Shown: positions 46,839-49,703, counted from the stretch's first letter. The stretch is 64,000 nt of DNA from Pseudomonadota bacterium (GCA_009922615.1 RFVF01000016.1:10612-74611), one strand, 5' to 3'. The notes: generated by a model from the letters alone, not told the origin. Made by a program: numbers and translations.

Positions 46839-49703
46839 TCAAACGGAGGCTCGGCCTTCCATCTGGCCGCGCGTGACGCCGAGCTGATGGTGCAATTTCA
46901 ACTCGCGCCAGAGCTGTTCGCCAGTGAGTTCGCCGCGCAGCAGGGCACGATAGCGCGCGATGGTCGTGGCGACTTCTTCGGGTGACTCGTTGACAAACTC
47001 GATGCGGAAGCGGCGAACGCCGAGCGCTTGCAGGCGGCTGACGTATTCTGCGCCGGTCTGCGCGCGGGCGTTGAAGACGGTGTTGCGGCAGCCGGCGTCG
47101 GCCTTGAGCGGGTGCTCCTGCCCGACGCGGTCGCGCACACGCACGTCGTGGTGGTCACAGGGGCGGCCGCAGTCGCGGTAGTCCTTGCCCTTCGAGAGGA
47201 AGGCGCAGAAGACGCAATGCTCCATGTGAAACATGGGCATGTGCTGGTGGATGGTGACTTCGAACCACGCCGGCGGCGCGCCGCGCAACAGGGCTTCAAG
47301 CTGCGTGATGTTCAGGTCGTAGCTCGCCGTGAGCCGCTCCAGTCCGAAGCGGGACATGAAGTAATCCGCCGTGAGCGGGTTGGCCACGTTGAGCGAGAAG
47401 TCGCCGACGCGGTGGCAGTCGGCGAAGAAGTTCAGGTGGTCGTAGTTGCGGACGAGGTAGCCGTCGGCGTTGCAGGAGCGGACTTGCTTGAGAATCCATT
47501 CCTCGCCGGACTTTGTGATGCGCGGCGGAGCCACCCAGATTGACGACGGCCGATTGCCGATTGTCGCTTGGCAGCCGCGCGCGGTGTGGAAGGTGGCAAC
47601 AGCGTCGCGGTAGCGCTTGGGGTCTTCGAAGTCACAGTAAATGGTCGACGCGCCGCAGCGGAGCGCGGCATCGAGCTGGGCGAGATTGCGGACGAGGACG
47701 ATGAGTTCGGAGTCGTGGGGCACGTCCACGCGCTTGTCTTCTCCCTCTCTCCCATCAGGGGAGAGGGGGCGGGCTGCTTGCGCAAGTAAACCCTCATTAC
47801 CTCGACCGTCTTGCCCCCTCACCCCGGCCCTCTCCCCCGATGGGAGAGAGGGAGAAGAGGCGGCGGGTGATTCGGCGAGTTTCTCGTTCAGAACCCACCG
47901 CTTTGGCAGCGCGCGTTGGCGTTCCAGTTCGGCCACGAGTTCACGGCGGAGGCGATTCAGTTCGCTGACGGGGAGGATGACTTCGCCTTCGAGGCGGCTG
48001 GTGAGCGCGCCGAGCTTGAAGGGCGTGCCGCCGAGGCGACCGAGCTGGTCGCGGAGCTTTTCCTCGGTGAGCGGTTGCTTCTCCGCGCGCGCGAGCGGGG
48101 CGGCGGATTGCGCCTGTGCGACGTGCCCTAGCTCGTCACGCGCGATGATCGTGAGCGGCGTGCCCTCGTGCCCGTGGAGTTCAAACCTCGCCGGCCGTTG
48201 GAATCGCGGGGCCTCGCCGGCGAACGTGGCGCGGACGCGCTTCTCCAGCTCGGCGTCGCTGGTCTTCCACAGCTTGTCGCCGACGTGGACGCGCGCGAAG
48301 TCCACCGCGCTAGGCATGAACGTGAGCACGACCTCTTCATTCCGCATTACGTATTCCGCACTCCGCATTTGAAAGACTCGTCCGCCTTCCTCGTCGTCGC
48401 CGCCGTGGCCGGGGTCGAAGACGATGCCGTCGCCGGCTTTGAGCGGTCCGGCAAGGCGGATGTGAACGCGGTCGCCCGCGACGCGCGTGACCTCACCGAC
48501 GAACGCACCACGTTTTTTGCCGAAGCGCGCGTGGACGAGGCGTTGATTGTCGATGCCCTCGAACCAGCCCGTGTGCAGGCCGCGGGAGAAGGCCATTTCC
48601 AATTCATAACGTCGAGGGTCGAGGGTCGAGGGTCGAGGGTCGGAAAGCGCTGGGCTCTCCGCTCTACGCTCTCGACTCTCAACCAACGCGTCCAGCGCCT
48701 GCCGGTAGATGCGCGTGATGCTGGCGACGTATTCGGGCGACTTCAGACGGCCTTCAATCTTGAGCGAGGCGACGCCGGCGCGGGCGAGGTCGGGGAGGAC
48801 TTCGAGGCCGGCGAGGTCTTGCGGGGAGAGGAGGTAATTGCGTCCGCCGAGATCCACCTTGCGACCGTCGGAGATGAGTTCGTAGGGCATCCGGCAGGCC
48901 TGTGCGCACTCGCCGCGATTGGCGCTGCGCCCGCCGAGCGCCTCGCTGGTGAGGCATTGGCCGGAGTAGGCAACGCACAGCGCGCCGTGGACGAAAACCT
49001 CGAGCGGTAATGCGGAGTGCGGAGTTCGGAGTGCGGAATCGGACGTAGCGGTGGCTGCGGCGGCAGCATTCGCAATTCGCATTTCGCATTTCGCAATTTC
49101 CCCGATCTCCTTGATCGAGCACTCTCTCGCGAGCACGACTAGGTTGCACCCCAGCTCGCGCGCAAACGCCACACCCGCCGCGCTGGTGATGGTCATCTGC
49201 GTGCTGGCGTGGATGGGGAAATCCGGCGAGAGGCGGCGGATGAGCCGCGCGATGCCCACGTCCTGCACGATGGCGGCGTCCACGCCGGCGGCGATGATGC
49301 TGCGGAGGTATTCCTCGGCGGCGGCGAGTTCGTCGGCGAAGACGAGCGTGTTGAAGGTCACGTAACCTTTCACGCCGCGTCGGTGGAGGAACTCCATGAG
49401 CCGCGGCAGATCGGCCTCGGTGAAGTTGTGCGCGCGCATCCGGGCGTTGAAGCGGTCGAGGCCGAAGTAGATGGCATCCGCGCCGTTCTCGACGGCGGCT
49501 TTGGCGCACTCCCAGTCGCCGGCGGGCGCGAGGAGTTCAGGCAACTTCGTCCACCCGCCGATGGAGGCGGGCGTCGAGCTGGAGTCCTGAACTGGCGGAT
49601 GCGAAACGGGCATGGGAGCGGCCGACGTCGGCAAGTTACCCGGGTGCGACGGGAGCGTCGAGCCTCCTTGGAGTTGGGGAGGGCAAGATTCGTCTCCGGT
49701 CAT
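46839..49703 (-). CDS. U32-family peptidase, double-U32 architecture, 954 aa, carrying four in-frame repeat elements
   Basis: LLAPAGDWECAKAAVENGADAIYFG, the U32 signature EVFVHGALCVAYSGQCLTS, and a second C-terminal U32-like half (HMPMFHMEHCVFCAF). The start is either ATG 49703 or ATG 49613. Confidence 0.85.
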   Translation of the reverse strand: MTGDESCPPQLQGGSTLPSHPGNLPTSAAPMPVSHPPVQDSSSTPASIGGWTKLPELLAPAGDWECAKAAVENGADAIYFGLDRFNARMRAHNFTEADLPRLMEFLHRRGVKGYVTFNTLVFADELAAAEEYLRSIIAAGVDAAIVQDVGIARLIRRLSPDFPIHASTQMTITSAAGVAFARELGCNLVVLARECSIKEIGEIAKCEMRIANAAAAATATSDSALRTPHSALPLEVFVHGALCVAYSGQCLTSEALGGRSANRGECAQACRMPYELISDGRKVDLGGRNYLLSPQDLAGLEVLPDLARAGVASLKIEGRLKSPEYVASITRIYRQALDALVESRERRAESPALSDPRPSTLDPRRYELEMAFSRGLHTGWFEGIDNQRLVHARFGKKRGAFVGEVTRVAGDRVHIRLAGPLKAGDGIVFDPGHGGDDEEGGRVFQMRSAEYVMRNEEVVLTFMPSAVDFARVHVGDKLWKTSDAELEKRVRATFAGEAPRFQRPARFELHGHEGTPLTIIARDELGHVAQAQSAAPLARAEKQPLTEEKLRDQLGRLGGTPFKLGALTSRLEGEVILPVSELNRLRRELVAELERQRALPKRWVLNEKLAESPAASSPSLPSGERAGVRGQDGRGNEGLLAQAARPLSPDGREGEDKRVDVPHDSELIVLVRNLAQLDAALRCGASTIYCDFEDPKRYRDAVATFHTARGCQATIGNRPSSIWVAPPRITKSGEEWILKQVRSCNADGYLVRNYDHLNFFADCHRVGDFSLNVANPLTADYFMSRFGLERLTASYDLNITQLEALLRGAPPAWFEVTIHQHMPMFHMEHCVFCAFLSKGKDYRDCGRPCDHHDVRVRDRVGQEHPLKADAGCRNTVFNARAQTGAEYVSRLQALGVRRFRIEFVNESPEEVATTIARYRALLRGELTGEQLWRELKLHHQLGVTRGQMEGRASV
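47738..47860. repeat. about 123-bp palindromic element in frame in the U32 inter-domain linker
   Basis: tctccctctctcccatcaggggagaggg, and the inverted copy ccctctcccccgatgggagagagggaga, differ by 1 nt. It encodes SPSLPSGERAGVRG to PLSPDGREGE. Confidence 0.85.
48339..48370. repeat. half-element of heptamers ttccgca/ttacgta/ttccgca/ctccgca, in frame in U32
   Basis: Closely matches the inverted left arm of the element at 49008-49100 (ttccgcactccgcatt). It encodes MRSAEYVMRNEE. Confidence 0.7.
48611..48680. repeat. gtcgagg x4 heptamer array with a loosely complementary right arm, in frame in U32
   Basis: gtcgagggtcgagggtcgagggtcgagggtcgg and gctctccgctctacgctctcgactctc. It encodes AESPALSDPRPSTLDPRR. 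Confidence 0.75.
49008..49100. repeat. palindromic element with heptamer arms, in frame immediately N-terminal of the U32 signature motif
   Basis: Left arm tgcggag/tgcggag/ttcggag/tgcggaa; right arm attcgca/attcgca/tttcgca/tttcgca. It encodes KCEMRIANAAAAATATSDSALRTPHSALP. Confidence 0.8.

Follow-up and report, generated by a model that had tools for sequence, protein, structure and literature searches.

Host gene and its repeat cassettes

The 64-kb window analysed here (64,000 nucleotides, RFVF01000016.1:10612-74611 of assembly GCA_009922615.1) carries on its minus strand, at 46839..49703, an intact 954-codon open reading frame (ORF) encoding a U32 peptidase family protein, into which five in-frame cassettes of short repeats, a to e, are set. 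The ORF product matches Peptidase_U32 (PF01136; 296 bits, E=1.6e-88, gathering cut-off 22.4) and DUF3656 (PF12392; 97.5 bits, E=9e-28, gathering cut-off 22.1) in Pfam, and is laid out as an intact fused enzyme, with a U32 TIM barrel at the N-terminus, the DUF3656 domain and another U32 barrel that is UbiV-like. Its scores against the NCBIfam models TrhP, UbiU and UbiV (209, 160 and 46 bits) are all below the corresponding cut-offs (534, 440 and 275); the partial likeness to TrhP and UbiU lies in the N-terminal barrel and that to UbiV in the C-terminal barrel. Judged by these matches, the host protein appears to be a fused U32 paralogue that is not equivalent to characterised TrhP, UbiU or UbiV. 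A PDB sequence search with the host protein gave no match, and a fold search returned generic TIM barrels, among them the U32 protein Mk0906 (5d88). The NCBI protein P0001, identical to the window protein, starts at M31; because this start and the ortholog N-termini agree, the true gene is probably 46839..49613, encoding 924 aa from M31 at 49613. The first 30 codons of the 954-aa ORF (49613-49703) are probably untranslated.

Cassettes a to d were reported in an earlier note, made from the sequence alone, as four repeats that preserve the frame of one intact ORF; ORF, Tandem Repeats Finder (TRF) and arm analysis find all four in place, and to these we add a fifth, e. In total the gene contains six head-to-tail arrays of 7-nt units, with copy numbers from x2.9 to x4.6 (TRF). 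The window has eight exact heptamer dimers, five of them in this gene, against an expectation of 4.9 +/- 2.0 for the entire window; chance does not account for those in the gene.

Cassette a (49008..49100, minus strand) is an inverted pair of heptamer arrays delineated by TRF, TGCGGAG x3.9 at 49011-49037 and ATTCGCA x4.4 at 49068-49098, which on the sense strand read as a 5' arm of AATTGCG x4.4 and a 3' arm of TCCGCAC x3.9. It encodes KCEMRIAN...SALRTPHSA and is followed by the strand LEVFVHG and the Cys-rich U32 signature; the peptide had been given correctly in the earlier note, save for an additional L before EVFVHG. The same note called the element a palindrome with heptamer arms. The arms are present, but they pair at only 5/7 positions per unit, no hairpin was found for the cassette as DNA, and the RNA fold is no better than shuffles on the sense strand (z=-1.15) and modest on the antisense strand (z=-2.4), so that cassette a is an inverted heptamer-array pair and at most a degenerate palindrome. 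On the sense strand each heptamer pairing includes two A.C mismatches, whose antisense equivalents are G.U pairs.

Cassette b (48611..48680, minus strand) is a hairpin composed of a perfect array and a degenerate complementary arm, much as first described: GTCGAGG x4.6 at 48611-48642 (TRF, 100% matches; CGACCCT x4.6 in the sense reading) faces a loosely complementary arm at 48654-48672, and the fold of the whole scores z=-6.0 (sense) and z=-6.2 (antisense). It encodes ESRERRAESPALSDPRPSTLDPRR. Cassette c (48338..48369, minus strand) is a single TRF array, AATGCGG x4.6 in the sense reading, which encodes MRSAEYVMRNE and gave no hairpin on folding. Its proposed kinship with cassette a holds, as the two belong to one unit family and have the 13-mer TGCGGAGTGCGGA in common, in opposite orientation. 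Cassette e (47538..47563, minus strand) is likewise a single TRF array, CAATCGG x3.7 (sense), encoding ATIGNRPSS, with no fold above chance. The peptides encoded by the cassettes include SALRTPHSALPLEVFVHGALCVAYSGQCLTSEALGGR and STLDPR.

Cassette d (47737..47858, minus strand) is of a different kind, an inverted doublet of a GC-rich palindromic repeat that resembles a REPIN (repetitive extragenic palindromic, or REP, doublet forming a hairpin). Its arms, 47737-47767 and 47828-47858, are 31 nt each and 97% complementary, its fold has z=-7.3, and its core reads CCCTCTCCCC-loop-GGGGAGAGGG-CCGGGGTGAGGGG. Its translation, SPSLPSGERAGVRG...LSPDGREGE, falls in the inter-domain linker. The earlier assignment of this double hairpin to the family of the intergenic palindrome at 39514-39574 is upheld by the motif GGGGTGAGGGG and the architecture that both possess. 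An Rfam scan of the gene region yielded only sub-threshold miRNA-like hairpin matches, on cassette d, and a protein database search with the cassette-d peptide yielded no candidates.

Insertion into loops

The gene was compared with 61 database orthologs in a first alignment and, in the main set, with 158 orthologous genes for which DNA was available, making 159 with the window gene. Opitutae, cyanobacterial and some Limisphaerales orthologs supply the insert-free state, in which site a measures 12-15 aa, site b 17-21, site c 10 and site d about 20; the short connector at site a, for which E. coli-type proteins had been invoked, was compared with these insert-free orthologs only. Relative to them, the cassettes are true insertions in the alignment, as had been proposed.

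The AlphaFold 2 (AF2) model of the window protein is of moderate quality (mean predicted local distance difference test score, pLDDT, 66) and agrees with the surface-loop location considered earlier: all five sites fall between secondary-structure elements, and pLDDT is low at b, c and d and in part at a and e. Site a lies between helix 197-217 and strand 234-239 and coincides in part with a low-confidence stretch, 220-229. Site b lies between two helices, with pLDDT<50 at 349-361, and site c is the tip of a beta-hairpin formed by strands 439-448 and 457-462, with pLDDT<50 at 451-454. Site d is the low-confidence linker 600-662, disordered in the model, and site e is a second-barrel loop between helix 697-708 and strand 722-724, where pLDDT<50 occurs only at 713-715. 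The cassettes are thus predicted to occupy surface loops, linkers or low-confidence regions compatible with the fold.

Hotspots and repeat units across orthologs

TRF identifies 268 period-7 arrays among the 159 genes, and no more than 50 of any other period. Because a 7-nt period cannot come from selection on protein, this points to a process acting at the level of DNA. Arrays of at least 2.8 units number 230, occur in 86 of the 159 genes and are found at only six positions, the N-terminus and sites a-e; the remaining 73 genes have no arrays. Site e is the most often filled (56 genes, 63 arrays). These six positions, five internal and one N-terminal, recur as repeat hotspots in orthologs across the order, and cyanobacteria have them too; the phenomenon is not peculiar to this one genome.

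What fills these sites varies, and unrelated repeat classes occupy the same ones. Lineage-specific units at site a include GCGGTCA, GGTGACA, TTCAAAG, GTGTTCA, GTCGAGG and TTGCGAA. At site b, many orthologs carry a cassette family encoding VESRESRVEG...SRPSTLDPRR, others carry unrelated hairpins, and cyanobacterial orthologs have hairpins of the PLTPFPTREGG type. Two cyanobacterial orthologs (L047 and L063) have CCCCAGT in frame at site e, a unit seen in these two alone, which we take to be STRR1, a short tandemly repeated repetitive (STRR) sequence. Site c measures 16 aa in most of the closer Limisphaerales-type orthologs, compared with 10 aa in the insert-free state, and its arrays there are all period-7 and in one phase, giving a hydrophobic residue every 7 aa; they keep this phase because a hydrophobic residue is needed at that spacing.

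Array length peaks at ~4 units both inside and outside genes. Three features are in line with filtering at the protein level: S (x3), P, N, Q and T are over-represented in the array-encoded peptides and aromatic residues are scarce, the sense strand is the C-rich one in a ratio of 2-3:1, and in one locus (L002) the array ends exactly where an in-frame TGA would appear. Altogether 86 different unit classes occur in the U32 gene, of which a few dominate, notably those with a TCCGC core. Chi-like recombination signals were considered for the TCCGC/AGCGG-type units and set aside in view of these 86 classes.

Turnover between close relatives

Genes that are 97-99% identical in conserved columns can hold unrelated cassettes. 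The proteins P0013 and P0014 are 99.4% identical in conserved columns, and the corresponding DNA, L161/L162, has about 99% identity apart from the cassette and not one difference in the ~400 nt upstream of it; between them cassette a is wholly replaced, with sharp borders, and a second pair (L163/L164) behaves likewise. A third pair, L166/L167, shows a mosaic pattern of single-nucleotide polymorphisms (SNPs) and a swap at site d with diverged flanks, and homologous recombination is therefore indicated. In this pair site b keeps an equal total length, with 1 vs 4 units in one array and 4 vs 1 in the other. A single target sequence at site a was rejected, as the cassette borders differ (the left borders by up to about 10 nt). 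No clear target-site duplication, such as would mark a MITE with its terminal inverted repeats, was seen at filled compared with short or empty sites in the few cases at hand (L163/L164, L047/L063).

Changes in length follow a simple rule. Since three heptamers span 21 nt (7 codons), gain or loss of three units leaves the frame intact. Every array length variant seen is a multiple of 21 nt: besides L166/L167, CCCCAGT has 7.4 units in L047 (11928-11979) and 4.4 in L063 (2459-2489), a difference of exactly 21 nt, and in the P0005 90% cluster (73 members), where five aligned sequences are 99-100% identical, alleles of 897 aa and 890 aa differ by 7 aa, or 3 units, within the cassette-a array. L047 also has at site d a 60-nt in-frame hairpin insert that L063 lacks, and a 98%-identical allele of the window protein differs from it in cassettes a and d, with a 4-aa indel in d. 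The repeats thus sit in fixed hotspots and turn over quickly.

Dispersal within genomes

Array units recur within genomes. Among arrays at least 300 nt apart, 6.7% of pairs within a locus have an identical unit, compared with 1.6% of pairs between loci; unit sharing between sites is 4-6x commoner within than between genomes, and when one array is in the U32 gene and the other outside, identical units are found in 5.4% of pairs. In a first version of this test, 0/300 shuffles of locus labels reached the observed sharing. Single loci contain the same arrays at several sites and on both strands. The core motif of cassette d occurs in 12/167 related loci, mostly outside the U32 gene and as a compound hairpin, at the same site d in L083 and L165, and single copies of its palindrome are found in L008, L019, L062 and L105. 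The repeat types are accordingly not unique to this gene, in keeping with the earlier comparison of d with an intergenic element; they are present in related loci and in other genes.

That intergenic element, at 39514..39574, is a perfect palindrome (z=-8.8) with outer arms CCCCTCACCCC/GGGGTGAGGGG as in the cassette d family, located between the stop of ORF 39608-40954 (minus strand) and the presumed start of the next gene. A palindromic insert of another family lies in frame at 9685..9800 on the minus strand (116 bp, 57-nt arms, z=-7.8) and encodes FAAKERKGHKE...LRPLRSFAAN in the linker between the two ABC domains (ABC_tran x2) of a ModF-like ATPase (ORF 9018-10496, minus strand). This linker is itself a variable cassette hotspot, of 74-135 aa in the closer orthologs (79 in the window) and 61-73 aa in most of the distant ones. 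At 58312..58380, a heptamer-array hairpin (AAGCTCC / GGAGCTT x3.6; z=-5.2), an element in this genome of the type seen in the U32 gene but outside it, coincides with the start of ORF 58342-59178 (plus strand) and is probably intergenic, upstream of the real start. By reading of the ORFs, the other heptamer arrays and palindromes of the window lie outside genes; one of the arrays, CTGAAAC x4.3 at 1285-1314, is just past the stop of ORF 1321-2253 (minus strand). The dimer ATGCGGAATGCGGA at 4752-4765, a candidate copy of the a/c unit, was rejected as a chance match encoding HAECGA of a beta-carbonic-anhydrase-like protein.

An AddA/UvrD-like helicase (~1300 aa, identified by eye from motifs) is found near the U32 gene in several relatives (L015, L020, L022, L067, L101 and L111; e.g. 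L022 13458-17438). It has three conserved heptamer-array sites, with units that differ by 1-2 bases in every unit and encode DSRPSTLDGH, NSQPSTLNQH, NIQHSTFNQH and DPRPPTPDPH.

Two further repeats lie elsewhere in the window. Its strongest hairpin, at 13450-13561 (50-nt arms, z=-13.7, CACCGAGG octamer repeats), begins at the stop codon of the aminotransferase gene 12239-13450, a terminator-like position, and TRF reports a perfect 18-nt tandem duplication, GTTGGAAGCCTCCACTCA x2, at 35417-35452.

Genomic setting and host

The U32 gene is flanked downstream by an A-type Fe-S carrier and upstream by a divergent TPR protein, a pairing seen again in some related contigs. The closest database relatives of the U32 protein are Limisphaerales/Pedosphaera-type Verrucomicrobiota, and by this protein relationship the window is verrucomicrobial, from a soil or freshwater host of a free-living lineage. 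In the public record the window's own protein is labelled Proteobacteria, and contigs of metagenome-assembled genomes that carry this verrucomicrobial gene (L001, L004, L005, L013 and L027) are titled Akkermansia muciniphila, Bifidobacterium or Dongiaceae. These labels are probably binning or naming errors.

Origin and maintenance of the cassettes

We consider it likely, with some reserve, that the cassettes are selfish or neutral short-repeat DNA translated in tolerant loops and kept by selection on frame and length. In the U32 gene it is of two kinds, 7-nt arrays of ~4 units, either single (c, e) or in inverted pairs (a, b), and a doublet of a dispersed GC-rich palindrome (d), and all of them lie in loops or linkers that can accommodate additional hydrophilic residues. 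Within a genome they may spread by some copy process, e.g. template switching, ectopic conversion or a trans-acting transposase, and from strain to strain by short-tract homologous recombination, with arrays renewed by 21-nt slippage. What survives would then be filtered by selection for an open frame free of stop codons, for hydrophilicity and for loop length, and the sites would thereby persist. The protein most likely gains no function from the cassettes.

Several observations weigh against this account. Within the window, units of a, b, c and e form arrays only in the U32 gene, and because of this confinement their dispersal in this genome has to be read from relatives. The compared sites yielded no transposase, target-site duplication or donor copy, with no search made in the window or the loci for a RAYT (REP-associated tyrosine transposase) gene or for the GTAG/CGTC head that goes with it. 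The ortholog counts, such as 86 genes with and 73 without arrays, are not phylogenetically independent. Most pertinent are the array densities in verrucomicrobial loci, which under a crude ORF map for the split between coding and intergenic DNA come to 0.616/kb in the U32 gene, 0.042/kb in other coding DNA and 0.191/kb in intergenic DNA. The gene thus has 15x the density of other coding DNA and ~3x that of intergenic DNA, and within the loops the excess over intergenic DNA is by estimate >20x. Given this excess over intergenic DNA, random insertion plus tolerance is by itself insufficient; the loops would need longer persistence of arrays, nesting into existing repeats, or positive retention.

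This surplus in the loops keeps targeting, nesting and retention among the candidate mechanisms. In its boldest form, heptamer-array hairpins would be self-propagating, frame-neutral elements that home to, or are retained in, fixed loops (of the U32 protein, the AddA-like helicase and the ABC ATPase), a proposal to which we give a minor but appreciable chance. Were it true, it would mean hotspots that persist across an order and into cyanobacteria, with their content swapped between near-identical strains, and it would call for a mechanism of targeting or retention that goes beyond tolerance.

As a rival to tolerance and filtering, targeted or self-nesting mobile cassettes, in which hairpins with heptamer stems insert into, or are exchanged at, existing arrays or hairpins, so that a colonised site would remain a hotspot with changing content, seem to us unlikely. 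They would explain why U32 loops have far more arrays than intergenic DNA, why genes 97-99% identical receive unrelated fillings with sharp borders at the same sites, the genome-specific unit families, and the stereotyped size of ~4 units within and outside genes. The variation of left borders at site a by up to about 10 nt, however, is not what a single target sequence would produce, and the use of the same loops by unrelated repeat classes, cyanobacterial ones too, speaks for tolerance rather than targeting. The mosaic SNPs show, moreover, that ordinary recombination can move cassettes, and no enzyme was identified at the compared sites.

An origin in situ, with old low-complexity loops in which 7-nt slippage remakes arrays from local sequence without any import, is distinctly unlikely. 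It draws on site c, where length (16 aa) and phase are the same in all lineages under the unit pattern R-T-N-C-N-N-A and units stand one or two changes apart, with mixed arrays, e.g. in L019; on the similar series CTCGACC / CTCAACC / ATTCAAC / CCCGACC in the helicase; and on three-unit slippage, which is seen directly. The phase at site c, however, follows from the requirement for a hydrophobic residue at 7-aa intervals, and local remaking fits poorly with unit families that turn up again within one genome, at different sites, in further genes and in its intergenic DNA, more than between genomes, or with near-identical genes whose cassettes are unrelated in sequence.

It is improbable that the cassettes are functional elements, whether messenger RNA (mRNA) hairpins for pausing or stability between domains or flexible linkers of a required length. 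Across an order, and in part between phyla, the same sites stay occupied, length at site c is fixed, b and d are very stable hairpins, and density exceeds that of intergenic DNA, all of which a function could explain; yet 73/159 orthologs lack arrays, there is no sequence conservation at all, alleles with and without 3 units coexist, and a, c and e fold no better than chance. The earlier suggestion of a heavily structured mRNA is not supported either: the sense fold of cassette a is at chance level, and where orthologs do form hairpins the better-folding strand is antisense more often than sense (site a, 12 vs 5; site b, 29 vs 12). Selection for mRNA structure was rejected accordingly, as sense folds are not favoured over antisense; the antisense bias could reflect mutational bias or selection against mRNA structure.

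Phase variation, with one-heptamer slippage as an on/off contingency switch, is highly improbable, for although the gene has six arrays and heptanucleotide repeats are reported to drive such switching in Haemophilus (PMC8262952), the arrays here are short (~4 units), every observed array length variant keeps the frame in 21-nt steps, and 158/160 loci read through at least 850 residues in a single frame, the lone frameshift (L067) not being at a hotspot.

Comparison with known repeat systems

Most known cases of selfish DNA read in frame within housekeeping genes come from Rickettsia. The Rickettsia palindromic elements (RPEs) are short dispersed repeats found in frame in unrelated housekeeping genes (Ogata et al. 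2000, 2002, via review PMC10969869). The cassettes resemble them in adding an in-frame, translated peptide at fold-compatible positions and in looking selfish rather than useful, and cassette d and the ABC ATPase element at 9685-9800 are palindromes of comparable size (about 116-123 bp). They differ in that most cassettes here are 28-30-nt heptamer arrays, whereas RPEs are 100-150 bp with a conserved encoded peptide, and in that here different repeats reuse the same sites and turn over between near-identical strains; to our knowledge, neither site reuse nor strain-level turnover has been described for RPEs. The analogy with Rickettsia elements drawn in the earlier note therefore stands for the effect and not for the main actor, which is a tandem 7-nt array of ~4 units, with a, c and e not being stable hairpins. 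Homology of the cassettes to RPE families is very unlikely, given their unrelated composition and phylum.

Bacterial heptamer repeats have been known since 1990, when Mazel reportedly described the cyanobacterial STRRs; the canonical STRR units belong to heterocystous cyanobacteria. We know of no accepted origin or role for heptamer repeats. STRRs and other heptameric simple sequence repeats have been treated in PMC4692102 and PMC4679880, and those of Xanthomonas and Nostoc have a preferred length of about four units; the published repeats are described as mainly intergenic, being under-represented in coding DNA (PMC4692102). The arrays described here are like STRRs in their tandem 7-nt units, ~4 copies, occasional inverted pairs, dispersal and lineage-specific units. 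Unlike STRRs, they are concentrated in one gene and not predominantly intergenic (0.616 vs 0.191/kb), and they have a verrucomicrobial host and other units (TCCGC-core, GTCGAGG, CAATCGG).

REP sequences and REPINs are mobilised by RAYT transposases, and REPINs are extragenic by definition (PMC3116915; PMC3733652). Cassette d has the REPIN architecture, two inverted copies of a short GC-rich palindrome whose single copies are found between genes, but it lies inside a coding sequence. The small dispersed repeats (SDRs) of Nostoc are said by Elhai et al. (2008) to be very small mobile hairpin-embedded repeats located within heptamer arrays and occasionally in genes, and different SDRs reportedly occupy equivalent positions. 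The present elements are similar as very small mobile repeats embedded in hairpins; they belong to another phylum, however, and here the cassettes are the heptamer arrays themselves.

We found no description of in-frame heptamer cassettes for Verrucomicrobiota in the literature consulted, and the earlier note's statement that the phenomenon was undescribed for this lineage is consistent with that search. In the present verrucomicrobial lineage heptamer arrays are translated at fixed loops, more densely than they occur between genes; they turn over at the level of strains and follow a 21-nt step rule. Because filled, empty and swapped orthologous sites exist in many public assemblies, this is a tractable system for the origin and spread of heptamer repeats and for how proteins absorb junk sequence. 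The cassettes also have practical effects: they make proteins of this group look more divergent than they are, break up domain matches, and can lead alignment, clustering and structure prediction astray. By analogy with the systems compared above, they are best described as RPE-like in effect and STRR-like in sequence type.

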